From NCBI GenBank assembly GCA_034188985.1, contig JAXHVT010000023.1:62005-126004 (forward strand): DNA of 64,000 bases, given 5' to 3'. Source of the DNA: Actinomycetota bacterium. GTDB taxonomy: Bacteria > Actinomycetota > Geothermincolia > Geothermincolales > RBG-13-55-18. The notes below the pieces were generated by a model. It was not told where the DNA came from, searched no databases, and saw only the letters and a list, made by a program, of their open reading frames with translations. Numbering within the stretch: position 1 is the stretch's first letter; each line of letters opens with the position of its first letter. This document shows positions 1 to 24,150 of this stretch, in pieces. Both the position numbers and the translations under genes were made by a program.

Positions 1-1106
1 GGCGATAATCGGTCTACCGGCTCCCAGGTACTCGAAGATCTTGCCCCCGTACACGCCCTTGGTGTAGGGATCGTTCCACTGGAGTATCAACAGCGCCGTC
101 GATTCCTGCTGACGGCGTATCGATTCCGAGCGGCTTATAACGCCGCGGATCTCCACGATCTCCGGATGTTGGAGTGAGTTCCTCAATTGCGTCAATTTCG
201 GCTCGTAGGGACCGTAGAACCTGATGCCGACATCCCCGGGATCGACAAACCCCTCGTCTATCAACTGCTCGACGGCTTCGACCACCACGGTAGGATCGCG
301 CTTGAATCCGTAGAGCATGCCCGCGTAGGTAAGTATGAACCTGTCGGTCGTCGGGGTCATCTTCTCCTCGTAGTCATCGGGATCGAAACCGCTCATTATG
401 CAGCGAACGCCATGGGGCCTCTGGCCGTGAAGCTCCCGCAGGGCGTCGGCCCAGGGCCGGGTAACGGCGACAATCGCGCCGGCGCGAGAGAGGACGAATC
501 TCTCGAAACGTCGTTCTATGGAAAGCCTCAAGGGAGAGAGCTTCTCGGCCAGGAAGTCGTTCTGGGTCCAGGGATCGCGGAAATCCGCCACCCATGGCAA
601 GCCGCTAAGCCTCTGCAGGGCCGCGGCGACGACGTGGTTGGTGACGGGGGGAGAGGTGCTGTATAAGGCCCGGTAATCCCCCGAAAGAAGCTCCAGGCCC
701 CCCTTGAACAGGGCGAAGGGAAACCACAGGGAATAATCGTCGGGGAAGACGATCCATTGCCTGGCGCCCTTGCGTATACCCTGGAGGAAACGCCTGATCT
801 TTCTCTTGTACCCGGGCTCGTCCCCGCTCTCCACCAGCCCCTCTTCCTCGCCGGGATCCCAGGAAGGGAAGATCCCCATGGAGATCATCGTTCTCTTGGC
901 GGCCTGAATGATATCCGGAAAAGCGGCACGTATGACCTTGCACTCCGCGCCGTTTATCTCCGCAGGCTCCCCTTGCGCCCAGAAGGTCCTGTCCCTCTTT
1001 ACCGTCAAAACGGTCGGAACCCATCCGTGATCGGGCAGGTACTTGGCGAATTTCTGCGTACGTACGCCCCCCATGGTGCCGATGGGGGGGTAGACGTAAC
1101 TTACCA
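1..1106 (-). CDS. Glycosyltransferase family 4 (GT-B fold), 3'-truncated by window edge
   Basis: Manual minus-strand translation from the ATG at 1104-1106 gives an uninterrupted >360-aa frame (MVSYVYPPIGTMGGVRTQKFAKYLPDHGWVP...GGKIFEYLGAGRPIIA). The ORF track omits it because it has no stop inside the window. It has a GT4-like N-domain and an E-x7-E-type C-motif. Its ATG overlaps the upstream GT2 stop (TAATG). Confidence 0.55.
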
Positions 1107-2120
1107 TTAGGACCCGGCTCGCCACGGTGATCCCTTCCGGTAGGAGGTGCGCTGAGGATAAAATGCCGATGCAGCCGCCAATACCTGCATGCCCAGGGTG
1201 ATTACGAAAGCCGACAGAGTCAGGAAGGCGCTTGAATGCCGGTCGGGACGAGCCAGTCTGCAGAAGACGTAGCGGTAGCAATTATAGATCCAGTTATGAC
1301 CGCTCACTTTCTTGACGATCCGCCTGTTTCTGTAGAGGAACCTCCATGTGTTTACGAGGCGAAACAGGCTTATCGCCAATCTATCCCCGCCCAGTCGCCG
1401 GTGACCCCCGGTATCCCACGTATTGCCCCTCAAGTGGTAACATCTGGCGTCCGGGACATACACGAGGGTTTCACCGAGATCCAGCGCTCGGTAGTAGAAA
1501 TCCGTCTCCTCACGGAAGGAGTTCCACCTGTAACCGGGGTCGAAGGCCAGCTTCCCAAGCAGCGAGTTGTGGATCAACGCGATCGCGCACAGGTTGGGCG
1601 TCTCGACCGGTGTTTCCGAACCGGCTTCGAGTTCTAAGAATATACATCCGCCGACAGCCGGGTTCTCCCGTATCTCGAAATCCGTTATCTCCTTTTCGGC
1701 CAAGCCATGAGTACCCCCCGGGATATTTACATCGAGGCAATCGCCCGCCGCTATCGAGGCCCCTCTGGTCACGATGCTTTCGAGCAATAATTCGATATAA
1801 TCGTCCGCTAGAAGGACGTCGTCTTCACCGATGAGAACGTAATCGCCGACGGCCATGGATGCGCCGTCGTTCTTGGATATCTGTGAGCCCATTCTGCGAT
1901 CGTGCTTCAGGTACTTGATGGGCACGGGGCATTCAGCCCGCAATCCCGGTACCAGCTCTTCCATGTGGTCCGGGGACGCATCGTCAACGACGATTATCTC
2001 CACGACGTGAGGCTGGATGTACGATTTCAGGGTGTGGGAAAGGATGTCCGCGCGATTATAGGTTGGAATTATCACGGAAACAGAGTGCTCTCCCAGGGGC
2101 ATATTATTCTCCGTCGTCAT
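1107..2120 (-). CDS. Glycosyltransferase family 2
   Basis: 337-aa ORF. N-terminal VSVIIPTYNRADIL and a DDASPD-type motif are typical of GT-A/GT2 enzymes. Confidence 0.8.
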   Translation of the reverse strand: MTTENNMPLGEHSVSVIIPTYNRADILSHTLKSYIQPHVVEIIVVDDASPDHMEELVPGLRAECPVPIKYLKHDRRMGSQISKNDGASMAVGDYVLIGEDDVLLADDYIELLLESIVTRGASIAAGDCLDVNIPGGTHGLAEKEITDFEIRENPAVGGCIFLELEAGSETPVETPNLCAIALIHNSLLGKLAFDPGYRWNSFREETDFYYRALDLGETLVYVPDARCYHLRGNTWDTGGHRRLGGDRLAISLFRLVNTWRFLYRNRRIVKKVSGHNWIYNCYRYVFCRLARPDRHSSAFLTLSAFVITLGMQVLAAASAFYPQRTSYRKGSPWRAGS

Positions 2121-2407
2121 GGTGAGAATTATATACTTCCCCGTAAATCATATTCAATCGCTATGAGCGACGTATCCCGGCCGCGCGAGAGGGATTGATT
2201 ACTCATGAGGATGTCGCGATCTCCCGAGCCATGCACAGCCCGCTGCAACGCCCGCGCCATACGACAGGACGGGTGTCCACTCGGCGCGCCGCGGCGACGG
2301 CCCCACGGCCGCCGGCGCGGAGAACCGGGGCAGACCTAGCGGACGCTCGGGGCGGCGGCGACGGATATCGACAGCCGGTAAGCACCGGGAGGAGAGAGAT
2401 GTCCCGC

Positions 2408-2436
2408 TTTCCAGCCGGTGGTTATTCCAATAGAAT
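2408..2436 (+). promoter_or_regulatory. Candidate sigma70-like promoter (TTCCAG-16nt-TAGAAT) for wecB
   Basis: The track ORF 2195-2506 preceding wecB has low third-position GC, unlike true genes here, so it is read as non-coding. It contains a -10-like TAGAAT with a plausible -35. Confidence 0.25.
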
Positions 2437-2506
2437 TGTGCGTGTGCGAGAGATGCTATCGACAGCGATTACCGCTCGCACCGCGTCGTTTATATGCGTA
2501 GAAGGC

Positions 2507-3610
2507 ATGGTGAATGAATTGAAGATCGCCCTGATAGTCGGCGCACGGCCCAATTTCATAAAGATCGCCCCCATAGTCAGGGAGCTGGAAGAGCGACGCA
2601 TGGACTACACCCTGATACATACCGGCCAGCATTACGATTTCGAGATGAGCGAGACCTTCTTCGCATCCCTGGGCCTGCGGGAGCCCGATTACTATATCGG
2701 GATTGGATCGGGTACTAACAATTACCAGACGGCGAAGGCGATGCTCGGGCTCGAGGGGGTCCTCGACGAGACGGGGCCGGATCTCGTCGTGGTGGTCGGG
2801 GACGTGAACAGCACCCTCGCCGGTGCCCTGTCCGCGGTCAAACTAGGTATCGAGGTTGCTCACGTCGAGGCGGGCTTGAGAAGCTTCGACCGTTCCATGC
2901 CCGAGGAGATAAACAGGGTCCTCACCGACGCCATATCCGACCTGCTTTTCACCTCCTGCGAGGACGCCGACGAGAATCTCGCGAGAGAGGGTATCAGCAG
3001 GGACAAGATATTCTTCGTCGGCAATATCATGATAGATACGCTGGTGGACCTGATGCCCGAGATCAGGCGATCCACGATACTGGAGGAATTTGGCCTGAAG
3101 CGCGGGGAGTACGCATTCGTCACGTTGCACCGACCCAGCAACGTCGATGCCAGAGAGACGCTCGCCGAGATCGCCGGGGCGCTCGAGTCGATAGGAGGCA
3201 TGGGGCTTAGAATCGTTTTTCCGGTGCATCCGCGCACAAGACGGAGGATCGGGGATTTCGGATTAACGGGCAGGTTCGACGGGATTCAGAACCTGATACT
3301 ACTCGATCCTCTGGGTTACGTGGAGTCCATGGCCGCCACGTATTCGGCGCGGCTCGTACTCACCGATTCCGGGGGCTTGCAGGAGGAGACGACTTACCTC
3401 GGGATTCCCTGTCTGACGTTGAGGCCCAACACGGAACGCCCCGTTACTATCCGCATAGGGACCAACGTGTTGCTCGATAAAGGACCGTCGATGATACCCT
3501 CGGCGATGTCGACGATTCTCGAGGGCGGCGAAATACCACACCGGATTCCTGATCTATGGGACGGAAATACAGCGAAGAGGATAATCGAGACGGTGATCGA
3601 CCGCCTGTAG
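2507..3610 (+). CDS. wecB: UDP-N-acetylglucosamine 2-epimerase (non-hydrolysing)
   Basis: MVNELKIALIVGARPNFIKIAPI...HTGQHYD...HVEAGLRS... is the canonical WecB/MnaA signature. Start moved to the ATG at 2507. The ORF-track extension back to 2195 is Ala/Arg-rich with low GC3. Confidence 0.85.
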   Translation: MVNELKIALIVGARPNFIKIAPIVRELEERRMDYTLIHTGQHYDFEMSETFFASLGLREPDYYIGIGSGTNNYQTAKAMLGLEGVLDETGPDLVVVVGDVNSTLAGALSAVKLGIEVAHVEAGLRSFDRSMPEEINRVLTDAISDLLFTSCEDADENLAREGISRDKIFFVGNIMIDTLVDLMPEIRRSTILEEFGLKRGEYAFVTLHRPSNVDARETLAEIAGALESIGGMGLRIVFPVHPRTRRRIGDFGLTGRFDGIQNLILLDPLGYVESMAATYSARLVLTDSGGLQEETTYLGIPCLTLRPNTERPVTIRIGTNVLLDKGPSMIPSAMSTILEGGEIPHRIPDLWDGNTAKRIIETVIDRL

Positions 3611-3636
3611 AGCCCATTCACTCGCCCCGCCCGCGA

Positions 3637-3650
3637 TGACGTTTACGTCA
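3637..3650. promoter_or_regulatory. Perfect palindrome TGACGTTTACGTCA downstream of wecB
   Basis: 14-nt inverted repeat seen directly, followed by a GC-rich hairpin (CCGGCcgtGCCGG). Possible terminator or regulator site. Confidence 0.25.
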
Positions 3651-3874
3651 CCGGCCGTGCCGGTCGTCTCATTAGGCCACGGCTGGACGCCTGGAACGGC
3701 AAGGCGATCTTGAAGGTGAATTACCACACACGACGCCCTTATCAACCCGATAAGAGGTTGCAGGTTTCACCCCGGCCCGTGTTTTACGCCGCCCCAGAGG
3801 AACGACGCAACCCCGTGTATGCCTGTGAAGCAAGAACACATAACCATCCTGACCGGCCTGTCTTATAAAGTAGT

Positions 3875-3937: not shown

Positions 3938-4597
3938 ATGGCGATCAGGGTGAACGTAACCATGCCCGAGAAGTTCCTCGAGGCGGTGGATGACGCGGCT
4001 AGGGAGGAACACCGCGGCCGCAGTGAGCTGATAAGAGAGGCACTCAGGTTGTACCTAAGCCGGGTCGGTGAAAGCGGCGGAGGGGCCGGGGAGGCGAAAC
4101 GGAAGGTGGAGGGAGATACTAAAGCGATGAACGCCGCCAGGGAGGCTGCGCCGGTATCCGGTACGCCCGGGACCGGCTCGCGCCAGGCGCTTCGCGATAT
4201 CCTCCGGGGGGATGGTGACGTGGAGTTGGCCTTTCTCTTGCCGCCCCCGGCTGCGGGTGGAGCGGGGATAGAGGGAGAGGCCCATTTAGCCGTGCTGTTA
4301 AAGAAGGACTTGACGGGAGGAACGCTCGAGCGGAAGCGGCTCGAACTGCGCCGGCTTGCCGCGGGGGCGGCGGGACCCGACGTTGCGGACGTAATCGTCC
4401 TCAACCGGGCGCCGCCGGGGCTTAGTTACGATGTGGCGGGGAAAGGAAGGGCCGCGTACGAAAAGGAGGATGGGGTGAGGCAGTCCTTCGAGGTGAGCGC
4501 GATAAACGGGTATCTCGATTTCGCGAAGGTGGAGAAGGAATACAACGCCCTCCTGGCCGAGAGGATAAAGAAAGGGGAGATGGTATCTGAACGCTAA
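3938..4597 (+). CDS. RHH (CopG/MetJ-like) DNA-binding domain fused to MntA-like minimal-nucleotidyltransferase-fold antitoxin with degenerate catalytic motif
   Basis: N-terminus MAIRVNVTMPEKFLEAVDDAAREEHRGRSELIREALRLYL is a ribbon-helix-helix. C-terminus VADVIVLNRAPPGLSYDVAGKGRAAYEKEDGVRQSFEVSAINGYLDF matches the MNT C-terminal helix region. The GS...DxD position reads LAFLLPPPAAGGAGIEGEAHLAVLL, giving GS->PP and DID->EAH. Confidence 0.65.
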   Translation: MAIRVNVTMPEKFLEAVDDAAREEHRGRSELIREALRLYLSRVGESGGGAGEAKRKVEGDTKAMNAAREAAPVSGTPGTGSRQALRDILRGDGDVELAFLLPPPAAGGAGIEGEAHLAVLLKKDLTGGTLERKRLELRRLAAGAAGPDVADVIVLNRAPPGLSYDVAGKGRAAYEKEDGVRQSFEVSAINGYLDFAKVEKEYNALLAERIKKGEMVSER

Positions 4598-5015
4598 ACC
4601 GATCTGGAGGCTTCTCGATCATCTCAGGGAGGTTCTTGGCGAGCTCTCGAGGCTGCATGCGTGGGGAGCGGCGGATCTCCGGGAGCAGCGGGATTTCAAG
4701 GAGGAGAGAGCCCTTGAGCGCTGCCTTTACCTGGCCATCCAGGACGTGCTGGATATCGGTTCCCACATCGTTTCCTCGCTGTCTCTGGGGATGCCCGAGT
4801 CCTACCGGGACATCGTGGATAAGCTGGGCGGCGAGGGGGTAGTCCCCATGGAGCTGGTGGAGCGCTTGAGGGAGCTGGCCTCCTTCAGGGACGTCCTGGA
4901 GCACGGGTACCTGGCGCTCGATGCCTCCCAGGTCCGCGAATATCTTGAGCGGGGTGGAGACATGGAGGAATTCGCCCGCTGCGTGGTGGACTTTCTCGAT
5001 GACCGCGGGACTTAA
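4587..5015 (+). CDS. hepT: HepT-like HEPN toxin (DUF86), start codon uncertain
   Basis: Rx4HxY HEPN motif (FRDVLEHGY). ORF track gives 4746-5015 from an internal GTG. The same frame is open back to 4569 and encodes a HepT-like N-terminus (IWRLLDHLREVLGELSRLHAWGAADLREQRDFKEERALERCLYLAIQD). That stretch has no in-frame ATG/GTG/TTG. It overlaps the mntA-like stop at 4595-4597. Confidence 0.55.
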   Translation: MNAKPIWRLLDHLREVLGELSRLHAWGAADLREQRDFKEERALERCLYLAIQDVLDIGSHIVSSLSLGMPESYRDIVDKLGGEGVVPMELVERLRELASFRDVLEHGYLALDASQVREYLERGGDMEEFARCVVDFLDDRGT

Positions 5016-5331
5016 GTGACTCGCGTCGTGACCGGCCGGCGCAATAGCTAAGCTAGGGGCGGGGAGGCCGGAAGGTTGATCGAAGATTTGGTTGGAGGTG
5101 CGGTAATGCGGGAGACGGGATGCGGGATCGACGGCGTGGAGCCCATATGGCGGCGGTATCAGCCCTCGATCGGGTCGAAAACCGAAGACCTCGGCGCGGA
5201 ACGTGAGATCGACGTGAGATACCGGGGGACCCGGGAGGCGGACCACGGCGTCGTAAGTCTGGGACATGGTTGTAGAATCGGGTATAGGCCCGGGTGGGTC
5301 GATGATAGCGATGCGAGGGAGGGACGTTGAT

Positions 5332-6147
5332 GTGAGAAGAGCGATACCGGCGTCCTTGGCCCTGCTGTTGGTGGCCGCTGTGGCCTGCTGGGGATGCGGC
5401 GGCGGAAAGGAGCCCCGGGCCTGGCTGGACGAGACCTCCCAGTCCGCGTCCCGATATATCGAGGATGGGGGCTATCTCCATTTCGGGGAGGAGGTTGAAT
5501 ACCGGCTGACCACCGGGGAATCCAGCGTGGAACAGTCGATCGAGATGGAGGGCGACAACATCTTCCCCTACCGCCAGCGTTACGATTACCGGGAGACGGT
5601 GATCAGCGCGGAGATGCCGGATCAACCCCAGGAGAACAGTTTCTCCTACTTGACCGTCGATGGCGGAGCGACGGCGTTCGTGGAGGGGGAGCGCCTCACG
5701 GAGCAGCTGGGAGTTATCGGATGGATACATTACACTCCCACCGAGGAGGAAAACCGTTTCTTCAACTACCCCGACCTGATAAAGACCCTTACCAGCACCG
5801 AGGACGAGGTGAGGAGCCTGGGTTATAAGGAAGTCGACGGGACGAGATGCGTCCATCTCCAGTACAAGGTCAGCGGGGAGGATCTGATGCGGATGCGCCT
5901 GCAGGAGGATCCCTCACTGCAGGAGAAATACCAGGACGTGGATATATCAGAGCTGTTCGATGACATGGAAGTAGAGCTGTGGATAGGCGAGGACGACGGC
6001 CTGCCCCGGCAGGTTGTCATGAGCCAGGTTATCCTCGAGGAGGAGCAGGCGAATGCCGAGATACGCTTTCATATCCTGCTGAGTGGATACGGTGAGGAGG
6101 CGCCTGTGCAGATTGAGCAACCCGCCTTCTTCACAGATGCCATGTGA
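5332..6147 (+). CDS. Lipoprotein of unknown function
   Basis: GTG start with an AGGGAGGGA SD. Signal peptide MRRAIPASLALLLVAAVAC has a lipobox (AVAC). The mature ~250-aa acidic domain has no recognised motif. Confidence 0.55.
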   Translation: MRRAIPASLALLLVAAVACWGCGGGKEPRAWLDETSQSASRYIEDGGYLHFGEEVEYRLTTGESSVEQSIEMEGDNIFPYRQRYDYRETVISAEMPDQPQENSFSYLTVDGGATAFVEGERLTEQLGVIGWIHYTPTEEENRFFNYPDLIKTLTSTEDEVRSLGYKEVDGTRCVHLQYKVSGEDLMRMRLQEDPSLQEKYQDVDISELFDDMEVELWIGEDDGLPRQVVMSQVILEEEQANAEIRFHILLSGYGEEAPVQIEQPAFFTDAM

Positions 6148-6250: not shown

Positions 6251-6661
6251 ATGCACGCAGCGATCAAGCCGACGTCTTTCGTTTTAATATTTTTCGCGGT
6301 GACCCTTGCCGTAGCGGGCCAGATCTGCCTCAGGCGGGGGATGAACACCCTGACGGAGAGGACGGGTCTGGAGGGCACCGACCTCCTCAAGCAGCCGATC
6401 ACATTCATAAAGGAGATCTGCAAGACCTGGGTGGTCTTGCTGGGACTGCTCTTCTTCGTCTCCTCTGCCTTCTTCTGGCTGATGGTACTGTCATCCGTAC
6501 CGCTGGGCGTGGCGTATCCCTTCGTAGCCCTTACCTATATCGCGGTCATGGTTTACGACAAGATATTCGAGAACTATCCCATCAACGCATGGAACTGGGT
6601 GGGGGTGTTCTTGATCGTCACGGGAGTGATCATGATATCGATGAGGGCCACTCCGGAATGA
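6251..6661 (+). CDS. Small 4-TM DMT/EamA-like membrane protein (ArnE/ArnF-like candidate lipid-linked sugar flippase subunit)
   Basis: 136 aa with four hydrophobic segments and an EamA-like C-terminal pattern (...GVAYPFVALTYIAVMVYDKIFENYPINAWNWVGVFLIVTGVIMIS). Confidence 0.6.
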   Translation: MHAAIKPTSFVLIFFAVTLAVAGQICLRRGMNTLTERTGLEGTDLLKQPITFIKEICKTWVVLLGLLFFVSSAFFWLMVLSSVPLGVAYPFVALTYIAVMVYDKIFENYPINAWNWVGVFLIVTGVIMISMRATPE

Positions 6662-6693
6662 CGCCTGTAAGGGAGGCTGGAGCTGAACTGAGG

Positions 6694-7854
6694 ATGAAGG
6701 TCGTATTCGACGGCACTCCTTTCCTGCTGGAGAAGACGGGGATAGGGCATTACACCGACAACATGATCGCCCAGCTCCTACGGGAGTCGGCGGGGCTGGA
6801 GATAAGCCTATTCACCATCTCTTTACGGGGCGGTCACCGCCTGAAACGATCCGCCCCCGCTATTCCCGGGGTGGAGGCTAGAGGCTATAACCTTCCAGCC
6901 AACTTCCTGTACTATCACTGGTGGAATAGGACTTCTCTTTTTCCCGCGGAGAGACTGGTGGGCGAGTTCGATATCTTCCATTCCACCAACTACCAGGCGC
7001 CGGTCCTGCGGGAGGCGCGACTGGTATCCACGGTACACGATATAAATTTCGTGCGCTTCCCGGAGATGCAGAGCAGGGGCATCAGGCGATTCATCAAGGC
7101 CCTGCCGCCCCTCCTGGAGAGGTCCAGCGCCGTCCTGGCCGACTCCCACTTTACAGCCGGGGAGCTGATGGAGGTCTACGGCCTGCCCGGGGATAAGCTG
7201 CGGGTGGTCTATCCTGGCCTGAACCCTGTTTTCAGGGACGAGCCCGGGGCGGAGGAGACGGAGACCTCGCTGCGCGCCTACTGCCTGGAACCCCCCTACC
7301 TCGCCTATATCGGCAGCCTGCATCCCCGCAAGAACCTGGCCACGCTGATCGAGGCCTATTCCATGTTGCGTGACCGGGGTCTGGAGCACCGCCTGGCGGT
7401 GATAGGCGGAGGGGGCTTGGGGCAGCTTCATAACGTCGAGTATCGCAAGCTCACCAGGCGGGTGAGGGAGCTGGGCCTGGAGGAAAACATAGTGTTCACC
7501 GGGTACGTACCCGACGAGCGCCTGAAATGCCTACTAGTCGCGGCGGACATGATGGTGTTCCCGTCCATCTACGAGGGATTCGGCCTGCCGCCGCTGGAGG
7601 CCATGGCCTGTGGCGTGCCCGTCATCACCTCGCGACGGGCCTCCCTGCCGGAGGTGGTGGGTGATGCCGCCCTGCTTCTGGAGGACCCCCTGGAACCCAC
7701 CGAGATAGCGGACAAGGCGGAGGCCCTGCTCTCCGATACCTCCCTTCGCTCCGAACTGGTGGAGCGGGGCCGCGAGCTATCGCGCCGTTTCACCTGGGCG
7801 AAGGCGGCCCGAGAAGTGCTGCAGGTCTACCGCCAGGTAATGGAGGGAGGATAG
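6694..7854 (+). CDS. Glycosyltransferase family 4
   Basis: Starts MKVVFDGTPFLL (GT4 N-domain). C-terminal EGFGLPPLEAMACGVPVITS is the E-x7-E motif. An alternative ATG at 6658 overlaps the upstream stop as ATGA. Confidence 0.8.
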   Translation: MKVVFDGTPFLLEKTGIGHYTDNMIAQLLRESAGLEISLFTISLRGGHRLKRSAPAIPGVEARGYNLPANFLYYHWWNRTSLFPAERLVGEFDIFHSTNYQAPVLREARLVSTVHDINFVRFPEMQSRGIRRFIKALPPLLERSSAVLADSHFTAGELMEVYGLPGDKLRVVYPGLNPVFRDEPGAEETETSLRAYCLEPPYLAYIGSLHPRKNLATLIEAYSMLRDRGLEHRLAVIGGGGLGQLHNVEYRKLTRRVRELGLEENIVFTGYVPDERLKCLLVAADMMVFPSIYEGFGLPPLEAMACGVPVITSRRASLPEVVGDAALLLEDPLEPTEIADKAEALLSDTSLRSELVERGRELSRRFTWAKAAREVLQVYRQVMEGG

Positions 7855-14948: not shown

Positions 14949-15418
14949 TGGAGACGGGAGCGGACGACATGGCCTCCGGGCCGCGAGACGGCGGCCCGGC
15001 CGGTGGCGGACTCGCATATTATCTGAGGGGATCCCTCAAGTTTCTGCTCTACATAAACTGGAACGTCTTCGCGGCCTCCTTGAACGCGTATATCGTCCTG
15101 ATAGTGCTGGACAAGCTGAAATATGGTTTTGCCAGCTTTTTCTTCAACATGAATATATTGCTGGCCGTAGTCGTGGTCACGGGCTGCGTGGCCGTTTTAA
15201 CTTCGAGCCTTACGAGAGATAGGGGAACCGCGACGACCCCGGCCCTATCCTGGAACAAGGTCTGTATTGCGGTGGTATTTCTGGGCGTAGCCGGGGCGAT
15301 CATGATCTATTTCGGATCCGCCACGACGGGCGCGACCTTGATCGTGTCGCTGGTGGTGGGAGGGGTATTGATATACGTGCTGGCTCTGCTGCTGATTTTG
15401 GACCAGGCTCTATCCTGA
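14948..15418 (+). CDS. Small 4-TM membrane protein (GtrA-like flippase candidate)
   Basis: 156 aa and hydrophobic. Its ATG overlaps the upstream stop (GTGATG). Confidence 0.45.
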   Translation: METGADDMASGPRDGGPAGGGLAYYLRGSLKFLLYINWNVFAASLNAYIVLIVLDKLKYGFASFFFNMNILLAVVVVTGCVAVLTSSLTRDRGTATTPALSWNKVCIAVVFLGVAGAIMIYFGSATTGATLIVSLVVGGVLIYVLALLLILDQALS

Positions 15419-16859: not shown

Positions 16860-18350
16860 ATGGATGCGGTTGAAGGGCTGAGACCCGAGGAAAAACCCGG
16901 ATTACCACCCTTATTGAGGCGGATTCCCGCTGATACATGTATATATGTCGTCCTGGTTCTCGTCCTGGTAGCATTCTCGGTATTCGTCCTCATCGAGGTA
17001 TACAGCGTGGACGGCCTTTTCTCATACGACCCTTACTATCACATGCACCTGTCCGAGTTGATGGAACGGGAAGGGGATCTGGTAACCGAGATCCAGTTCT
17101 ACGAAACCGAAGAGGCTCCTCAATACGTGAGCAGCATGAGATCGCTCACGGCTCTGATACACGAATATACCGGCATTTCGTATTTAAATATCTATAAGGG
17201 GTTCGGTCTTTTCTGTAGGATTTTCACCGCGCTGGCCCTGTTCATCACCGCCGCTTATTTCCTGCGAAGCAAGAAATACGCCCTGATCGCGGTGATCCTC
17301 TTTCTGTCGTCGCCGTACATCATTTACAGGAGCTTCATCACCTTCCCTGAGAACCTGGTTATGCCCTTCCATATCCTCATCTTCTATTCCCTGATAAAGA
17401 GCCTGAGGGAGAAAAAGGCGGACCATATTCTGCCCGTATTGATCGCCGCTTCTCTTTACATCCATTACAGGTCGATTATCGTGCCGGCGGTTCTGGTACT
17501 GGTATTTCTGCTCTTCTGGAGGAGGATAAGATACACCGTCGGTCTGCTGGCGAGCATGGCGATTCTCGCCGCCCCCATACTGGTAAGCGCGGTGGAGCAA
17601 TACGTGGCATATCTGCAGGTGAACGTAGGACCCAGCGCGGCCTGGAAACCTTATACAGTGGCCGATCCCAGCTATACCGTCCCCACGCTCAGTGGTTATC
17701 AATCTCAACTCGGAGCCCTTCTATTGCTCTTCTCCCTGCTGGGCATCCCCTTTCTCATACGCAAGATCAACGCCCAGAAATTCCTGCTGCTGGTATGGCT
17801 GGTATTCACTTTCGCGCTTACCAGGGGAAAGGCGATCGGCCTGTATGTACCCCCGGACAGGATGCTGGCGTATCTCTGCATGCCGGCCGCGCTGACGGCC
17901 GCGGTATTCTTCAAGGAGATAGTCGGACTTGAGGTTCTCACCTCGCGGGCCAGATACGTATTCGTGGCGGCGGTAACGGTGGTCCTGATCTTCTTCTTAT
18001 TCGTAAACCTGCCCTCCGTACACGGCTGGGTCGGCGTGGGAGCGGACGAGCTGAACACGTCCGAATGGCTCAACGACAACGTGTCGCAGGACGCGGTGAT
18101 TCTGCCCTTCGACCTGGACCTTATAACCATCGGTCTCGAGAGCTATAAGAACGTGGACGGCTTGAGCTATGGCGATTGGACGGAGATCTTCAGCCATCCG
18201 CTGGGCGTGAAGGACAGACTGAGGCAGTTGTATCCCGACAAGCGGATATATATCGTGACCGGAAACAAGGTTTTCTCGCTACATGACGCGGAGATCGTCT
18301 TCAGCGAGGGCGATATGAGAGTCTATACTTACTGGGATGAAGGAACATGA
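16860..18350 (+). CDS. GT-C fold polytopic membrane protein with STT3/AglB-like first-loop motif (candidate polyprenol-linked glycan transferase)
   Basis: 496 aa. TM1 is followed by ...YSVDGLFSYDPYYHMHLSELMEREGD... (compare eukaryotic STT3 HEFDPYFNYR). About 11 TM follow, then a ~110-aa C-terminal soluble domain. No WWDYG motif. Confidence 0.55.
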   Translation: MDAVEGLRPEEKPGLPPLLRRIPADTCIYVVLVLVLVAFSVFVLIEVYSVDGLFSYDPYYHMHLSELMEREGDLVTEIQFYETEEAPQYVSSMRSLTALIHEYTGISYLNIYKGFGLFCRIFTALALFITAAYFLRSKKYALIAVILFLSSPYIIYRSFITFPENLVMPFHILIFYSLIKSLREKKADHILPVLIAASLYIHYRSIIVPAVLVLVFLLFWRRIRYTVGLLASMAILAAPILVSAVEQYVAYLQVNVGPSAAWKPYTVADPSYTVPTLSGYQSQLGALLLLFSLLGIPFLIRKINAQKFLLLVWLVFTFALTRGKAIGLYVPPDRMLAYLCMPAALTAAVFFKEIVGLEVLTSRARYVFVAAVTVVLIFFLFVNLPSVHGWVGVGADELNTSEWLNDNVSQDAVILPFDLDLITIGLESYKNVDGLSYGDWTEIFSHPLGVKDRLRQLYPDKRIYIVTGNKVFSLHDAEIVFSEGDMRVYTYWDEGT

Positions 18351-18441: not shown

Positions 18442-19584
18442 TTGAAGGTACTCTTCGTAACGAGTGAGCTGTATCCCTGGAAGACGGGCGGAGTGCAGAA
18501 CGTGGTTTATAACCTCGCCGCCCGGCTGGGGGAAGAGATCGATCTGGAGATGATCTGTATTCACCTCGGCGACGGCGAAGAGGGCCTGGACGGCTACGGC
18601 GACGGAGTCACCTTTCGCTTTATCGAGGACCGGGGAGCCGGCCCCCTCAAGTACCTGTACCGCAACCTGGCCTACATCCGGGCCGACGGTGGCCTGGAGG
18701 ATTTCGATATCGTGCATTTCCATATCCTCCCAGGCGCTAACTGCGCGTTTCTTCCCCGCCATATCAAAAGGCGTTCGGAGGCCAGGCTCCTGCTCTCCGT
18801 GTATGATTGGATTCCCGATGAGCTGGAGTTCTATGATACGGGCGAGAAGGTGAGGCATCTTATGCATTGGGCGGCCGCGAAGCGGGGTCTCAAGAATTTC
18901 GACGGCTATATCGTGAACAGTTCATACGTAAAGGACATTGTCGAATCCTACGGCCTTACCGGGGTGACGATAATGCCCAACGGTATCGATATGGATGAAT
19001 GGAGGACCTCGAGAAGGCTGGCCTTGCGAGGATCGACGAACATCCTGTTCTGGGGACGGCTGTTTCCCAAGAAAGGCGTGGATCACCTTATCAAGGCCTT
19101 TGCCGTGGTGACGCGGCGGTACAGGGACATTCATCTCTATATCGGAGGAGAGGGCCCCCACGAATGTCACTACCGGAAGCTATGCCGCCGTCTAGGCCTG
19201 GAAAACAGGACGACCTTTCTGGGAGGGTTGAGCAAGGATGACCTGAAGGCTTACCTGAATTCATGTGACTTCTGCGTCTTTCCTTCCATCTACGAGGGTT
19301 TCGGGATAGCGGTACTGGAGGCCATGGCGGCCTCCAGACCGGTCATCGTCTCCGAGAGGGGTGGGCAGGTCGATTTCGCCAGGCATGCATTCAACGCCTT
19401 ACTGGTCGACCTCGACAAGCCCGACCAGTTGCCCCACGCGATCCAGAGCCTGGCCACGGATGAGCGCCTGAGGCGGGAATTGGGCGAAAACGCCGCGAGG
19501 ACCGCCACCGAGTATAACTGGCGCGATATCGCCGGGCGTTATGTCGAACTGTACGAGAGCATGTTATCGAAGGGTGGGATATAA
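18442..19584 (+). CDS. Glycosyltransferase family 4
   Basis: TTG start with a GGGGAGGA SD. MKVLFVTSELYPWKTGGVQNVVYNLA...FPSIYEGFGIAVLEAMAASRPVIVS. Confidence 0.8.
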   Translation: MKVLFVTSELYPWKTGGVQNVVYNLAARLGEEIDLEMICIHLGDGEEGLDGYGDGVTFRFIEDRGAGPLKYLYRNLAYIRADGGLEDFDIVHFHILPGANCAFLPRHIKRRSEARLLLSVYDWIPDELEFYDTGEKVRHLMHWAAAKRGLKNFDGYIVNSSYVKDIVESYGLTGVTIMPNGIDMDEWRTSRRLALRGSTNILFWGRLFPKKGVDHLIKAFAVVTRRYRDIHLYIGGEGPHECHYRKLCRRLGLENRTTFLGGLSKDDLKAYLNSCDFCVFPSIYEGFGIAVLEAMAASRPVIVSERGGQVDFARHAFNALLVDLDKPDQLPHAIQSLATDERLRRELGENAARTATEYNWRDIAGRYVELYESMLSKGGI

Positions 19585-19586
19585 AT

Positions 19587-19913
19587 ATGGCGTTTCTCGA
19601 CGGCCTCAGGTCCATAGCGGCACTGCTGTTTCTGATTTTCATTCCGGGCTTCGCCTGGACCTTGGTCTTTTTTAAAGAGAGGGAGGTGGACATTCTGGAG
19701 AGGTTCGTCTATTCCATCGCCCTCTCCATCGCCCTGATGGCCATAGCCCTGTTCTTCGCGAACCGGCTCCTGGGCGTGAGGATCAACGTTCCCAACTCCT
19801 TTGCAATCGTCGTGGTGCTGACCGCGATACCGTTCATCCATAGATTTTTAAGCAAGCGGGGACACTACGACAGATTGCGCCTGAGGAGGTCGCGGAACGG
19901 CTTGAAGACCTGA
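19587..19913 (+). CDS. Small 3-TM membrane protein, unknown
   Basis: 108 aa and hydrophobic. Its ATG sits 2 nt after the upstream stop. Confidence 0.45.
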   Translation: MAFLDGLRSIAALLFLIFIPGFAWTLVFFKEREVDILERFVYSIALSIALMAIALFFANRLLGVRINVPNSFAIVVVLTAIPFIHRFLSKRGHYDRLRLRRSRNGLKT

Positions 19914-20058: not shown

Positions 20059-20919
20059 TTGAAGGTAAGCCTGGTGATACCGGCCTACAACGAGGAAAAG
20101 GCCATCCCCGGCGTCATAAGGGAAGCCGTGGAGGTCTTGGAGGCCAGCCCGTACGAATGGGAGATAGTAGTGGTGGATGACGGATCCAGTGATGGCACCG
20201 CGGATATCGCGGTCTCCTTCCCCGAGGTGAACCTGGTGAGACACCCGTACAACATGGGAGGCGGCAGGGCTCGAAACTCCGGGATCGACAAGGCCACGGG
20301 GGACGTGGTCGTGATAACGGATGGAGATGGCACCTATCCCATGCAGGACATCCCCAGACTGGTGGAGGAGCTGGAAGACTGCGACATGGTCGTCGGGGCC
20401 CGCACCAGGGAGGCGGGGACGATGAAAGCGTTGCGGATCCCCGCCAAGTTCGTTATCCGCAAGCTGGCGGAGTTCATAAGTGGTTCCAAGATTCCGGACC
20501 TGAACTCCGGCATGAGAGCCATGCGCAAGGAGATCATGCTTCCATATTTACACATGCTGCCGCCCGGCCATTCCTGGGTGAGCACCATAACCCTGATTCT
20601 CTTGAACAGCGGTCGCAGCGTCAAATACGTGCCTATCGCCTACTATCCCCGCAAGGGCAAATCGACCTTTCATCCCATAAGGGATACTGGAAGCTATCTC
20701 ATGACCATATTCCGTACAATAACCTGGTTCAGCCCGCTGAAGATATTCCTGCCGCTGGGCCTGCTGCTGCTTCTGGGGGGCTTCGCAAAGCTGATAGCTG
20801 ATTTCGTGCGATATAACTGGTCCGTTACCCCGAGCACGGTGATCCTGCTGTTGGGAGGCTTGCAGATACTCGTTTTGGGCTTGATAGCCGATCTGATCGT
20901 AAAAAGGAGTGGGCCATGA
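20059..20919 (+). CDS. GT2 polyprenyl-phosphate hexose synthase (GtrB/DPM1/ArnC-like) with C-terminal TM helices
   Basis: TTG start. MKVSLVIPAYNEEKAIPGVIRE...VVVDDGSSDGT...VITDGDGTYP plus two C-terminal TM segments is the typical Und-P/Dol-P sugar synthase layout. Confidence 0.8.
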   Translation: MKVSLVIPAYNEEKAIPGVIREAVEVLEASPYEWEIVVVDDGSSDGTADIAVSFPEVNLVRHPYNMGGGRARNSGIDKATGDVVVITDGDGTYPMQDIPRLVEELEDCDMVVGARTREAGTMKALRIPAKFVIRKLAEFISGSKIPDLNSGMRAMRKEIMLPYLHMLPPGHSWVSTITLILLNSGRSVKYVPIAYYPRKGKSTFHPIRDTGSYLMTIFRTITWFSPLKIFLPLGLLLLLGGFAKLIADFVRYNWSVTPSTVILLLGGLQILVLGLIADLIVKRSGP

Positions 20920-21890
20920 GCGATAAAGTACTCATTACCGGAGCGGACGGTTTCGTGGGAAGGCATCTGGCGGCGTATCTTGCCGACGAGGTGGGGACGG
21001 AGGTGTTGGGCCTCGACCTGAAACCGGCCAGGTTCCCCGAGCCCTGGGACAGGTGTGGCTACGGGGAGTGCGACGTTCTGGATCGCGACAAGGTCTTCTC
21101 CTACGTGCATGGATTCAAGCCGGATTACGTGTTCCACCTGGCCGCCCAGAGCTCCGTACGCCTGTCCTGGGAGGAACCCCAGCTCACATACAATATCGCC
21201 CTTACCGGGCAGGCCAACATCTTCGACGCGGTAAGGGATACGGGCAGGGATGCGGTTCTGCACGTAGCCTGCTCGGCCGAGGAATACGGCCGGGTGAGCG
21301 AGGACGATCTCCCCATAACCGAGCGGCAGCCCTTGAGGCCGGCGAGCCCCTATGCCCTGAGCAAGGTGATGCAGTATTACCATGCCGTTTTCAACCACCA
21401 GGCTTACGGTACCCGGGTCGTTATCACCCGAGCCTTCAACCAGACCGGCCCGGGGCAGGCCCCCGAGTTCGTGGTCTCCGACTTCGCCAGGCAGATAGCC
21501 GAGGCGGAGGCGGGCGACAGGACCCCGGTAATAAGGGTGGGCAACCTGGAGGCCAGAAGGGACTTCTCCGACGTGCGCGACCTGGTGGGCGCCTACTGGC
21601 TCCTGGTCCAGAAGGGGAAGCCGGGGGAGGTGTACAACGTATGCTCCGGCTGCGATTATTCCATAAGGGAGATCCTGGACATGCTGCTGTCCCACAGCAA
21701 GGTTCCCATCAGGGTGGAGGTGGACCCCACGCGTATGCGCAAGGCGGATATCCCCGTTCTGAAGGGGGACAACACCAAGATGAGGGAGCTGGTGGACTGG
21801 GCCCCGGTGTGCGCCCTGGACAGGACCCTGGAGGATGTACTGGAATGGTGGCGGGAGGAGATACGGTCGAGGAAGGAAGGCGGCAAATAG
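20916..21890 (+). CDS. NAD(P)-dependent extended SDR, GDP-4-keto-6-deoxy-D-mannose reductase (Rmd)-like
   Basis: ITGADGFVGRHL and a YxxxK motif (YALSK). Homologous to the gmd-like gene downstream (shared FN.TGP....FV...F.RQ.A block). ATGA overlap with the upstream stop. Confidence 0.65.
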   Translation: MSDKVLITGADGFVGRHLAAYLADEVGTEVLGLDLKPARFPEPWDRCGYGECDVLDRDKVFSYVHGFKPDYVFHLAAQSSVRLSWEEPQLTYNIALTGQANIFDAVRDTGRDAVLHVACSAEEYGRVSEDDLPITERQPLRPASPYALSKVMQYYHAVFNHQAYGTRVVITRAFNQTGPGQAPEFVVSDFARQIAEAEAGDRTPVIRVGNLEARRDFSDVRDLVGAYWLLVQKGKPGEVYNVCSGCDYSIREILDMLLSHSKVPIRVEVDPTRMRKADIPVLKGDNTKMRELVDWAPVCALDRTLEDVLEWWREEIRSRKEGGK

Positions 21891-21994
21891 CCCGCGGGGC
21901 ACGGCGCGTCCGGACCGGAGGCCCGCCGCCTGTAGACCGGGATGGAGAGCACCTACGACGGCGGAGAGGCGGAGACTGATACGGAGGTCTATAA

Positions 21995-23107
21995 ATGCAG
22001 GCTGTGATACTGGTAGGGGGGCAGGGAACGCGGCTGAGGCCGCTCACTCTGACCGTCCCCAAACCCATGCTGCCCCTGATGAACAGACCCTTTCTCGAGT
22101 TCCAGGTCCAGCTGTGCCTGCGGCACGGCATCTCCGACATCATTATGAGCACGGCCTACCTGCCAGAGGTCTTCGAGGAGCATTTCGGGGACGGCAGCGG
22201 CCTGGGGGCGAAGATGACCTACGTCACCGAGGACGAGCCCCTGGATACGTGCGGCGCGGTCAAGAACGTGGAGGAGTATATCAAGGGCCCTTTCCTGGTG
22301 TTCAACGGTGATATCCTGACCGATCTCGACCTGACCAACCTTATCGCCTATCACCGCGAGAAGGGCTCGAAAGCCACCATCTCGCTGACCAGGGTGGAGG
22401 ATCCCACCGCCTACGGACTGGTGCCCCTGGACCGGTCCGGGCGTATAAATGAGTTTCTGGAGAAGCCGAGCTGGGAACAGGTGGTCACCGACCTGATCAA
22501 CGCCGGGACCTACGTGATGGAACCCGAGCTCCTGGACAGAGTGCCGCGAGGTGAGCGCTACTCCTTCGAGCGGCAGCTTTTTCCCCAGCTGCTGGAGGAC
22601 GGGGTGCCCATGTACGGCTTCGCAACCGATGCCTACTGGATGGACATCGGCACGCCGGCCAAGTACCTGCAGGCGCATTACGACATACTGGGCCGGATGA
22701 TCCCCTTCGATTTCGCGGGAGACGAGATAAAGCCCTCGGTCTGGGCGGAGGAGGGGGCGGAGATATCCCCCGAGGCCTCCGTTTTCGGCCCCACCATAAT
22801 CGGCTCCGGATGCCGTATAGCTCCCCATGCCATCGTATCCAGCCGATGTGTATTGGGTCCCGATTGCGAGCTGGGTGAGGGCGTGCACGCGGAGGGGGTG
22901 GTGATGCACTCCGGCTGCAAGGTGGGAGAGGAGAGCGTATTGAGCCGCTGCGTCATCTCCAGCGACGTGGAGATCGAGGAGAAGGTACACGTCGCCGATC
23001 AGTCCGTGCTGGGCGGGAGAGTAGTGGTGGAGAGGGAAAACGACCTGAAATGCGGCATCAGGGTATGGCCGGAGGCCCATATCCCGCCCTCCACATTGCA
23101 CTTCTAG
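21995..23107 (+). CDS. manC: Mannose-1-phosphate guanylyltransferase (NDP-sugar pyrophosphorylase with LbH C-domain)
   Basis: MQAVILVGGQGTRLRPLT...PKPMLPL... N-terminal NTP-transferase signature, plus C-terminal hexapeptide repeats. Confidence 0.8.
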   Translation: MQAVILVGGQGTRLRPLTLTVPKPMLPLMNRPFLEFQVQLCLRHGISDIIMSTAYLPEVFEEHFGDGSGLGAKMTYVTEDEPLDTCGAVKNVEEYIKGPFLVFNGDILTDLDLTNLIAYHREKGSKATISLTRVEDPTAYGLVPLDRSGRINEFLEKPSWEQVVTDLINAGTYVMEPELLDRVPRGERYSFERQLFPQLLEDGVPMYGFATDAYWMDIGTPAKYLQAHYDILGRMIPFDFAGDEIKPSVWAEEGAEISPEASVFGPTIIGSGCRIAPHAIVSSRCVLGPDCELGEGVHAEGVVMHSGCKVGEESVLSRCVISSDVEIEEKVHVADQSVLGGRVVVERENDLKCGIRVWPEAHIPPSTLHF

Positions 23108-23196
23108 CGGGCTCTGGAAAAAGAGGCGGTTTACAGTCATAATATTACGGATGATGTAAGAGACTGCGTATTGATACGCCGACAAAGGAGGAAGGC

Positions 23197-24150
23197 TTGC
23201 GGATTCTTATAACGGGAATAACCGGCTTTGTGGGCAGCCATCTGGCGGAATATACTTTTAGCAAGGACGGCGTAGAGGTTTACGGGACCGTCCGCTGGAG
23301 ATCCCGTATGGAGAACGTCGAGCATATCCTGGACCGGATTAATCTCGTCGACTGCGACCTGCGCGATGCCGCGGCGGTCAGGAACACTCTGGACGAGGTG
23401 AGGCCGGATTTTATCTTTCACCTGGCGGCGCAGAGCTTCGTGCCCACCTCCTGGAAGGCGCCGGAGGAGACCCTGACCACCAACATCATCTCCGAGCTGC
23501 ACCTGCTGGAGGCCATGCGCGAGTCGAAGCTGGATTGCCGCATACAGGTGGCAGGCTCCAGCGAGGAATACGGCCTGGTACGCGAGGAAGAAGCCCCGAT
23601 TACCGAGGACAACCCGCTGCGGCCTTTGTCCCCCTACGCGGTGAGCAAGGTGGCCCAGGACTTGCTGGCTTACCAGTACCATAAGAGTTACGGCCTCTTT
23701 ACCGTGCGCACCCGCGCCTTCAACCACACCGGCCCCAGGCGTGGACACGTCTTCGTCACCAGCAACTTCACCCGCCAGGTGGCCATGATAGAGCGGGGAA
23801 AGAAAGAACCGGTTATCGAGGTGGGCAACCTGGAGGCCAGGAGGGACTTCACGGACGTCAGGGACATCGTGCGCGCCTACTGGCTCAGCCTGGAGAAGGG
23901 GGAGCCGGGGGAGGTATATAATATCGGCTCCGGCAAGGCCATCACCATCCGGGAGCTCCTGGACCTCATCCTCTCCATGACCGACGTGGAGATAGAGGTG
24001 AGACAGGACCCCGCGCGCATGCGACCCTCGGACGTCATGCTCCTGCTCACCGACTACGGCAAGTTCAACAGGGCCACGGGATGGAAGCCCGAGATACCCC
24101 TGGATAAAACGGTCGGGGACCTCCTCGACTACTGGCGCGAGAGGGTCTGA
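23197..24150 (+). CDS. gmd: GDP-mannose 4,6-dehydratase (short form)
   Basis: TTG start. ITGITGFVGSHL...VRWRSRMENVEHI...FNHTGPRRGHVFVTSNFTRQVA matches the Gmd block [22 protein letters not shown]. Confidence 0.7.
   Translation: MRILITGITGFVGSHLAEYTFSKDGVEVYGTVRWRSRMENVEHILDRINLVDCDLRDAAAVRNTLDEVRPDFIFHLAAQSFVPTSWKAPEETLTTNIISELHLLEAMRESKLDCRIQVAGSSEEYGLVREEEAPITEDNPLRPLSPYAVSKVAQDLLAYQYHKSYGLFTVRTRAFNHTGPRRGHVFVTSNFTRQVAMIERGKKEPVIEVGNLEARRDFTDVRDIVRAYWLSLEKGEPGEVYNIGSGKAITIRELLDLILSMTDVEIEVRQDPARMRPSDVMLLLTDYGKFNRATGWKPEIPLDKTVGDLLDYWRERV

Follow-up and report, generated by a model that had tools for sequence, protein, structure and literature searches.

Three-component glycosylation systems combine a lipid-phosphate sugar synthase, a small flippase and a GT-C glycosyltransferase (PMC11127046). 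The closest described examples are the Gtr system (GtrA/GtrB/Gtr*) of Shigella and Salmonella, CsbB/GtcA/YfhO of Bacillus and Listeria, GacI/GacL of streptococci and the pentofuranose system of Citrobacter (PMC11127046). A second point of comparison is provided by the polyprenyl-phosphate-mannose glycans of mycobacteria and corynebacteria (Ppm1, PimE, MptC of family GT87, MptA/B and Pmt), which share the phylum Actinomycetota with the host of the DNA described here. This DNA, referred to as the window, is a stretch of 64,000 nucleotides from an Actinomycetota contig (JAXHVT010000023.1, positions 62,005 to 126,004). Positions 1 to 24150 of the window hold a surface-glycan assembly locus, as had been proposed in an earlier sequence-only reading and as was borne out by open reading frames (ORFs), independent gene calls and Pfam and NCBIfam matches. 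We interpret it as a cell-envelope glycan locus with two linked branches, one for cytoplasmic assembly and one for three-component glycosylation at the outer face of the membrane, and assign this interpretation a probability of about 0.6.

In the proposed mechanism, WecB (g2) would supply UDP-ManNAc, g20 would supply GDP-mannose, and g21 followed by g19 would produce a GDP-6-deoxyhexose, for example GDP-D-rhamnose, the identity of each of these sugars being presumptive. Four GT4 and three soluble-type GT2 glycosyltransferases would assemble a polyprenyl-diphosphate-linked glycan in the cytoplasm, and a Wzx-type flippase encoded upstream would take this glycan across the membrane. In the second branch, g18 would put a single sugar on polyprenyl phosphate, mannose from the GDP-mannose of the locus being the most economical guess; a small 4-transmembrane (4-TM) protein, with g6 as the main candidate and g13 as a possible second, would flip the lipid-linked sugar; and g10, g11 and g15 with g17 would draw on it to lengthen or decorate the glycan at the outer face, the two branches presumably acting on the same product.

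The locus shares with the three-component systems a GT2 synthase that ends in a TM hairpin (g18), a small candidate flippase with 4 TM segments (g6) and GT-C enzymes expected to act outside (g10, g11 and g15), all set in a glycan locus with its own Wzx or ABC export route. It differs from them in having three GT-C enzymes of three subfamilies for one visible lipid-sugar synthase, in having a flippase candidate that is ArnE/F-like and not GtrA-like, and in the location of g10 in a lineage-wide core, where the known systems have an accessory serotype-converting gene. The features held in common with mycobacteria are a DPMS-like synthase, an Rv-type ManC, a GT87 protein, a PMT_2-type GT-C protein, GT4 enzymes and the combination of one lipid-sugar donor with several GT-C enzymes. 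In contrast to mycobacteria, the locus has WecB, Wzx and a GDP-6-deoxyhexose branch but no recognised phosphatidylinositol mannoside (PIM) or inositol genes, and its GT87 gene is not kept across relatives.

The gene set was derived from an ORF listing with selection on the GC content of third codon positions (GC3) and checked against independent gene calls on the source contig (L002). Families were assigned with Pfam and NCBIfam profiles and TM segments from hydropathy, while synteny was examined by searching 17 related loci with every locus protein in tblastn, supplemented with gene tables. Related loci belong to uncultured Actinomycetota, among them Candidatus Solincola daggyaiensis (class Geothermincolia). 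The two gene-calling approaches agreed on 23 genes, of which g0 and g1 are on the minus strand and form the divergent glycosyltransferase pair already noted from the sequence; all of the remaining genes are on the plus strand, giving 20 to 21 co-directional genes where nineteen had been counted. Four GT2 enzymes (g1, g8, g9 and g18) were confirmed, in agreement with the earlier count, while the GT4 enzymes number four (g0, g7, g14 and g16) and not five. Overlaps of 4 bases or gaps of a few bases occur at g6/g7, g8/g9, g9/g10, g12/g13 and g18/g19, among others, these overlapping or abutting start and stop codons being indicative of operons. Only WecB exceeds its NCBIfam equivalog cutoff among the locus proteins.

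The sugar-loading component of the second branch is g18 (20059 to 20919), a putative polyprenyl-phosphate sugar synthase of the GtrB/ArnC/DPMS/AglJ type that consists of a GT2 domain (PF00535, E 1.8e-33) and two C-terminal TM segments forming a hairpin (segments at 221-280). The best NCBIfam model was AglJ (E 4.2e-35), followed by Dol-P-hexose transferase, ArnC and PpgS, all under the equivalog cutoffs. Comparison with the PDB gave ArnC (82.9 bits), Pyrococcus DPMS (59.5 bits) and GtrB (about 53 bits), with the GtrB alignment spanning residues 2-279 and hence the TM hairpin; these alignments identify g18 as the GtrB/DPM1-like, membrane-anchored GT2 that had been predicted. The best candidate for the cognate flippase is g6 (6251 to 6661), a 4-TM protein of the SMR/EamA type by its TM profile, with matches to ArnF (NF002816, E 1.1e-12, 48.4 bits, cutoff 99) and ArnE (E 2.5e-10, 40 bits, cutoff 92). 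Proteins of this 4-TM kind are assigned as flippases in published three-component systems (PMC11127046). Small membrane proteins of the locus had been suggested as flippase candidates; g6 has these ArnE/ArnF-like matches, both under the cutoffs, and g13 (14948 to 15418), which may be a second flippase, is a 156-aa protein with a 4-TM profile, no family match and no tblastn homolog in any related locus. Relative L005 holds a 163-aa gene at the position of g13. The adjacent gene, g12 (13464 to 14948), encodes a 494-aa protein of pI 4.21 with one N-terminal TM segment and an acidic outside domain of ∼460 aa; no Pfam, NCBIfam or PDB match was detected, and its homologs form only nine clusters, which are unannotated and lineage-restricted and offer no functional lead.

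Hydropathy identified three large polytopic proteins, all of which belong to the class of GT-C enzymes that work at the outer face with lipid-linked donors. The first, g10 (9699 to 11906), is a 735-aa PMT_2/ArnT-like protein with ∼12 TM segments. Its sequence is identical to the SWK76_04970 protein of a metagenome-assembled 'Actinomycetota bacterium' and is also present in a Logan contig. No Pfam match at E 0.01 and no match in NCBIfam or among PDB sequences was detected for g10. A homolog search yielded 33 relatives, 14 of them listed with a precomputed PF13231 match, which was marked as weak in the sole locus for which match strength is given, and three named 'GT39 family'; a g10 profile run over species-representative genomes detected 13 loci. 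The second protein, g11 (11958 to 13310; 450 aa, ∼10 TM segments), belongs to GT87, the family of PimE; its PF09594 match (E 9.6e-13) spans positions 4-235 of the 237 in the profile and scores 48.9 bits, the cutoff being 25. The third, g15 (16914 to 18350), is a compact protein of 478 aa with ∼10 TM segments for which no Pfam, NCBIfam or PDB sequence match was found, a search of the PDB with a g15-family profile being equally empty. None of g10, g11, g12 and g15 gave a usable match when its sequence was searched against all solved structures, and only the comparison of folds was informative. Confident AlphaFold models were generated on homolog alignments, with a pLDDT of 88.7 and a pTM of 0.90 for g10 and values of 81.7 and 0.82 for g15. 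As modelled, both proteins are of the GT-C(A) structural class, with the conserved multi-TM module and an acidic residue in the first outside loop; this residue corresponds to an invariant Asp, D122 in g10 and D39, within S-Y-D-P-x-x-H, in g15. The fold of the g15 TM domain agreed with that of the oligosaccharyltransferases STT3, AglB and PglB, which were the best structural matches by two methods. In the Foldseek comparison, nine STT3/PglB chains stood on top and were followed by ArnT (E 1e-8 to 1e-7 for STT3, PglB and ArnT), whereas WaaL, an O-antigen ligase of the GT-C(B) type, gave an E value of 0.65 and a probability of 0.08.

These comparisons bear on whether the locus encodes a plain Wzx/Wzy repeat-unit pathway, in which the polytopic proteins would be a Wzy and an O-antigen-ligase-like enzyme and g18 an ordinary GT2. 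The presence of a Wzx on the same contig speaks for such a pathway, as do matches to the Wzy-like EpsG family in one of the g15 homologs and in 2 of 73 more distant relatives. However, the WaaL match of g15 was insignificant while those to STT3, PglB and ArnT were strong, g10 and g15 have the GT-C(A) fold, g11 is a GT87 protein, and the alignment of g18 with GtrB, ArnC and DPMS extends through the TM hairpin that defines lipid-phosphate sugar synthases; a plain Wzx/Wzy pathway is, in our view, extremely improbable. A Wzy or O-antigen-ligase identity was rejected for g15 on its fold, by comparison with WaaL, and for g10 and g11 on their GT-C(A) and GT87 assignments without a direct WaaL comparison. 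The proposal that the three polytopic proteins are GT-C-like thus survived an examination in which either the lack of a GT-C fold or a Wzy or ligase assignment was looked for.

The resemblance of g15 to oligosaccharyltransferases raises a different alternative, namely, that the GT-C enzymes act on secreted or membrane proteins and not on a polysaccharide. In this case g10 would resemble the actinobacterial Pmt and carry out O-mannosylation from polyprenyl-phosphate-mannose made by g18, and g15 with g17 would be oligosaccharyltransferase-like, transferring the Wzx-flipped oligosaccharide en bloc, possibly onto the acidic proteins g12 or g5. The PF13231 matches and 'GT39 family' names of the g10 homologs fit this alternative, as do the structural neighbours of g15. 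Two of the 17 relatives found in a homolog search with g15 are named Stt3 by JGI, and 4 of the 73 more distant relatives match Pfam STT3. Further points in its favour are that AglJ, the best model for g18, is an archaeal N-glycosylation enzyme and that a Wzx without a recognisable Wzy is also found in en bloc protein glycosylation pathways. In detail, g15 resembles STT3, AglB and PglB in the invariant Asp of its first outside loop, in having a long outside loop that is flexible and in the small size of its C-terminal outside domain, but differs from them in its length (478 aa versus about 590-970 aa) and shares only 11-14% identity. Pfam STT3 (PF02516) matched neither g15 nor any of its 16 close homologs, and the WWDYG motif was absent from the g15 C-terminal outside domain, which is only ∼100 aa long and contains no conserved Asp. 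Past the last TM segment there are, instead, two invariant glycines, G371 and G374, and a nearly invariant W372 (sequence HGWVGVG). Protein acceptors are also disfavoured by the presence in g12 of a single N-X-S/T sequon and no Ser/Thr-rich tract and by a number of GT4 and GT2 genes that exceeds the usual need of known protein-glycan pathways. Overall, we regard protein glycosylation as unlikely.

The genes around g15 are arranged as GT4 (g14, 15684 to 16853; PF00534, E 1.7e-23), g15, GT4 (g16, 18442 to 19584; PF00534, E 3.5e-41) and g17 (19587 to 19913), the last of which encodes a 108-aa membrane protein with a weak DUF1616 match (E 7.9e-7). This order is retained in L005 and L006. An exhaustive profile search with g15 through 1.84 billion representatives detected 348 clusters at E <=1e-3 and 45 at <=1e-30, while a profile scan of species-representative genomes detected zero relatives. 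The Pfam matches of the 73 more distant relatives were to DUF6541 (15), PMT_2 (13), DUF1616 (4) and the STT3 and EpsG families mentioned above; in one DUF6541 member, P0170, the middle part overlaps PMT_2. The g17 protein matched the N-terminal extension of eight longer g15 relatives, every time upstream of the g15-like region, and the control queries g13 and g6 matched none of these. Among the eight, 4 carry DUF6541, 3 carry DUF1616 and 3 have no Pfam match; the DUF6541 model begins at the g17-like segment in 3 of the 4 DUF6541 members. These matches suggest that g15 and g17 are a split DUF6541-type GT-C protein of which g17 is the N-terminal module, g17 thus probably being the partner of g15. 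Although g17 corresponds to the N-terminal part of both the DUF6541 and DUF1616 models, g15 and g17 differ from the proteins of these families in having the module divided between two genes around a GT4 and in falling under the Pfam thresholds. In addition to its C-terminal outside domain, g10 probably carries a g17-like N-terminal module in fused form, although the matches are weak and not significant. Literature searches for DUF6541, DUF1616 and Geothermincolia yielded no information on function.

A more specific idea is that g15/g17 founds a compact (∼480-aa) STT3-like GT-C branch in deep-branching Actinomycetota, acting without WWDYG as an en bloc ligase of the Wzx-flipped polyprenyl-diphosphate oligosaccharide onto a protein or cell-wall acceptor. 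This role would account for the occurrence of a Wzx without a Wzy or WaaL-type enzyme, and, if it were true, g15/g17 would be an oligosaccharyltransferase-like ligase outside the PglB, AglB and STT3 lineages. We consider it a long shot.

The evidence for the cytoplasmic branch extends beyond the window. On the source contig, the locus runs on upstream of window position 1 with genes oriented as in the main operon (L002:12424-20996; window −321 to about −8900). These genes encode a CapK-like AMP ligase, a CapA-like (PGA_cap) protein, a SAM methyltransferase, a heparinase II/III-like protein, a 725-aa ADH-GFO/IDH/MocA fusion oxidoreductase and, at window −5392 to −6876, a Wzx-type Polysacc_synt flippase (PF01943; HfsF-like, E 1.1e-43). 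The locus is, therefore, at least 33 kb in length, and positions 1 to 24150 are its right-hand 24 kb, cut by the window edge. The sequence-only reading had found no Wzx, Wzy, Wzz, ABC exporter or initiating phosphotransferase, which is correct inside the window, but the apparent lack of a Wzx is due to this cut. The further conclusion that the pathway is not a classical one was overstated, as a Wzx lies just outside the window and related loci carry a Wzx or Wzm/Wzt. A conventional lipid-linked backbone pathway, therefore, probably coexists with the GT-C branch and is not replaced by it. To the right of 24150 are a Ser/Thr kinase gene and then housekeeping genes (AdoHcy hydrolase, SecA, PrfB, FtsX and a putative SmpB).

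Sugar-nucleotide supply is represented at both ends of the main gene set. The product of wecB (g2, 2399 to 3610) is a non-hydrolysing UDP-GlcNAc 2-epimerase, which makes UDP-ManNAc, and its recognition from the sequence was upheld by a TIGR00236 score of 326.4 bits (cutoff 210) and a PF02350 match (E 8.7e-102). At the right-hand end are an Rmd-like short-chain dehydrogenase/reductase (SDR) gene, a manC-like gene and a dehydratase-like gene, an order consistent with GDP-6-deoxyhexose supply and with the rmd-like/manC/gmd set described previously. The first of these, g19 (20916 to 21890), is probably a GDP-4-keto-6-deoxymannose reductase; it scored 256.9 bits with Aneurinibacillus thermoaerophilus Rmd (2pk3), 175.8 bits with Pseudomonas aeruginosa Rmd (6x3b) and 138 bits with gmd (TIGR01472, cutoff 415). 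The second, g20 (21995 to 23107), is mannose-1-phosphate guanylyltransferase-like, with an NTP transferase domain (PF00483, E 1.8e-53) and a left-handed beta-helix, and its best model is the Rv-type NF052502 (343.5 bits, E 1.1e-102), under the cutoff of 440. The third, g21 (23197 to 24150), is an Rmd/DmhA-like SDR with SSE and YxxxK motifs that probably catalyses the GDP-mannose 4,6-dehydratase step; it scored 319.6 bits with 2pk3, 230.1 bits with the GDP-heptose 4,6-dehydratase DmhA (7us5), with which it has an insertion in common, and 190 bits with TIGR01472. The products of the locus are, on these matches, likely to include a GDP-6-deoxyhexose made by the g21 dehydratase and then the g19 reductase. 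As in the GDP-D-rhamnose pathway (Gmd/Rmd) of A. thermoaerophilus and P. aeruginosa, two SDRs closest to A. thermoaerophilus Rmd flank a ManC-like gene. Unlike in that pathway, there is no canonical Gmd; this absence and the insertion that g21 has in common with GDP-heptose 4,6-dehydratase mean that the product could be D-rhamnose, 6-deoxy-D-talose or a 6-deoxyheptose.

Six genes, g5 to g10, form a conserved core that about 10 of the 17 related loci retain in colinear order. The first core gene, g5 (5332 to 6147), encodes an acidic lipoprotein (lipobox AVAC, pI 4.25) with a weak match to the SCO4651 family (36.6 bits) and a weak DUF2092/LolA-like match; homologs with 39-46% identity are in the same position in 10 related loci. 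Homologs of g6 are 59-88% identical in 10 loci, and g7 (6658 to 7854; GT4, PF00534, E 2.1e-36) is the best-conserved core gene, with 72-77% identity in 10 loci. The nearest solved structures to g7 are generic retaining GT4 enzymes of the MshA, BshA and sucrose-phosphate-synthase type, which do not reveal its acceptor. Next are two GT2 genes, g8 (7859 to 8833; PF00535, E 8e-19) and g9 (8830 to 9702; PF00535, E 1.1e-22), both with homologs in 13 loci (52-64% and 54-71% identity, respectively); g9 also has EpsD-like and rhamnosyltransferase-like NCBIfam matches under the cutoffs and an additional 29% match in L019. Across the core-bearing genomes, identity is 62-71% for g9 and 39-58% for g10, the last core gene.

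Maintenance of the core throughout the lineage is what would be expected of a housekeeping envelope component and raises the alternative of a lipoglycan of the lipomannan/lipoarabinomannan (LM/LAM) type. A glycolipid anchor would be mannosylated in the cytoplasm by the GT4 enzymes, flipped and then elongated by GT87 and other GT-C enzymes from the polyprenyl-phosphate-mannose made by g18, with g5 having an LpqW- or LprG-like handling role. Such a product would suit an actinobacterial host with a protein of the PimE family, an Rv-type guanylyltransferase model for g20, a DPMS/Ppm-like g18 and a conserved, weakly LolA-like lipoprotein. Against this, no phosphatidylinositol or PIM biosynthesis gene was recognised, the structures nearest to g7 are not PimA or PimB, GT87 was found in only 3 of the 17 related loci, and known LM/LAM synthesis involves no WecB, 6-deoxyhexose pathway or Wzx. 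A lipoglycan of this type, therefore, seems distinctly unlikely, and the two-branch envelope glycan is preferred.

Outside the core the locus varies among relatives. Homologs of g11 were detected in three of the 17 loci (L004, L009 and L019), g12 in three, g14-g17 in two and wecB in one; g18 occurs near the core in three (L003, L005 and L016), and g0, g1 and the upstream genes were detected in none. The variable partners in the relatives include UDP-galactopyranose mutase, UDP-glucose dehydrogenase, a DegT-type aminotransferase, YfhO, GT87, Wzx and Wzm/Wzt. A conserved core with a variable remainder, as in O-antigen and capsule loci, probably reflects a conserved cell-wall glycopolymer with strain-specific elaboration.

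Two of the related loci contain replacements of particular note. In L006 (14458-21894), a 936-aa YfhO-type GT-C protein and a Wzm/Wzt ABC exporter with a Wzt_C domain adjoin the Rmd-like SDR, part of the variable block having been replaced, and this locus is an ABC-transporter-dependent variant of the same system. The pairing of an SDR with Wzm/Wzt resembles the common polysaccharide antigen locus of Pseudomonas. In L003 (8572-9669), a UDP-galactopyranose mutase gene lies directly upstream of, and divergent from, the g10 homolog, which suggests galactofuranose in the glycan of that strain.

A horizontal origin of the locus had been put forward for testing by base composition. The GC content of the locus is 0.588 compared to 0.597 for the rest of the window, and the GC3 values of its genes (0.69-0.85) are essentially inside the housekeeping range (0.71-0.83). 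The only compositional signal is a modest dip to 0.54-0.57 at 12-20 kb, compared to 0.597 ± 0.015 beyond the locus, and it coincides with g11-g17, the variable block rich in membrane proteins. This dip, the differences in gene content of the same stretch among related genomes and the presence of a toxin-antitoxin module could all be taken as signs of a recently acquired genomic island. However, no tRNA, Rfam element, integrase or flanking repeat was detected within the locus, g5-g10 are colinear in about 10 related genomes, and the toxin-antitoxin module is in the same place in L004. The combination of a base composition like that of the rest of the window, a syntenic core and the lack of a mobile signature does not support recent horizontal acquisition, which we consider very unlikely.

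Several points weigh against the two-branch interpretation. There is a single lipid-sugar synthase for three GT-C enzymes; nearly all functional assignments, with the exception of WecB, are under curated NCBIfam equivalog cutoffs; and neither flippase candidate has a firm family assignment, with g6 scoring 48 bits against the ArnF cutoff of 99 and g13 matching no family. The acceptor of each GT-C enzyme could be a protein or a lipid in place of a polysaccharide. In neither the window nor the 9 kb upstream was an initiating phosphoglycosyltransferase, a Wzy, a Wzz/chain-length regulator or a cell-wall ligase (LCP) recognised, so that the backbone branch is incomplete as seen. We also know of no isolate of this lineage.

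The mechanism put forward in the sequence-only reading was correct in large part, but the overall design, cytoplasmic assembly by GT-A and GT-B enzymes combined with three-component glycosylation outside, is a known one and not a new kind of system. Its new elements are the lineage of the host, the core of six conserved genes and a family of compact STT3-like GT-C proteins that is uncurated and has a split DUF6541-type module. As the design is already well described, the value of the locus lies in annotation and enzyme discovery and not in a new principle. It provides a parts list for the main surface glycan of Geothermincolia-like Actinomycetota, a deep uncultured branch for which, to our knowledge, nothing about the cell envelope has been established experimentally. 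The findings would also extend to this branch the building of the envelope from outside by lipid-phosphate sugars and GT-C enzymes, which is best known from mycobacteria, tie the Pfam families DUF6541 and DUF1616 to GT-C glycosyltransferases and point to a small STT3-like GT-C family (about 350 clusters in 1.84 billion representatives) that is covered by no curated model.

The left flank of the locus begins with the two minus-strand genes. The window keeps the N-terminal 368 of the 451 aa of the GT4 enzyme g0 (1 to 1107; PF13579, E 1.3e-10, and PF13439), the remainder of the 451-aa call on the source contig being beyond the window start. The 331-aa GT2 enzyme g1 (1107 to 2102; PF00535, E 5.6e-21), which is divergent from the main operon, has only weak, generic GT2 matches in NCBIfam. 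The toxin-antitoxin module and lipoprotein that had been noticed inside the locus correspond to g5 and, between wecB and g5, an MntA/HepT-like pair. The first member of the pair, g3 (3938 to 4597), is an RHH-MntA-like antitoxin (PF01402, E 7.8e-10; NF047752, 31.8 bits, under the cutoff of 60) containing the nucleotidyltransferase GS...DxD motif GSRQALRDILRGDGD; loss of the catalytic motif was, therefore, ruled out. The second, g4 (4587 to 5015), is a HepT-like HEPN RNase toxin with the Rx4H motif RDVLEH, a PF01934 match (E 1.8e-14) aligned at profile positions 42-118 only and an NF047751 score of 59.6 bits, compared to a cutoff of 60. The canonical-start ORF of g4 is 4746-5015, but the frame is open from 4569 and the N-terminal ∼40 residues are in frame without an ATG, GTG or TTG start; a possible CTG start is located at 4587, after a Shine-Dalgarno-like site AAGGGGAG. 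In L004 (1015-2135), a homologous module (39% and 54% identity) is also directly before the core lipoprotein gene, which indicates that the module is an old resident and not a recent insertion. Between the genes for HepT and the lipoprotein (5106-5330), a 74-aa ORF with no family match was predicted on the source contig.

Other observations were made to the right of the locus. Abutting it on the minus strand (24364-26988) is the kinase gene, encoding an 874-aa PknB-like Ser/Thr kinase, the C-terminal region of which is beta-propeller-like (SBBP repeat match). Genes for AdoHcy hydrolase, an IF-2B/MtnA-family isomerase and a second ManC-like nucleotidyltransferase (NF052502, 237 bits) follow in a row (27150-30711), the latter two overlapping by 4 bases in an unusual pairing. 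A thiolase gene at 32414-33330 on the minus strand is seemingly broken: two overlapping ORFs cover the N-terminal domain, the second of them corresponding to Thiolase_N positions 64-259, and a C-terminal domain was not detected. On the plus strand, a raiA RNA motif at 33701-33928 (Rfam RF03072, 169.9 bits) is upstream of a 196-aa ORF (34244-34834), which, from the look of its sequence, is presumably a hibernation-factor-like gene. At 34942-37931, two membrane-anchored proteins of the HD-GYP type (HD_5) are encoded in tandem, the first with a weak MASE9 sensor match. At 52027-52989 on the minus strand, a tmRNA gene (tag peptide ADSELALAA) adjoins a 163-aa ORF (52498-52989) that, judged likewise from its sequence, is presumably smpB. 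Five tRNA genes are present at 59490-63323.

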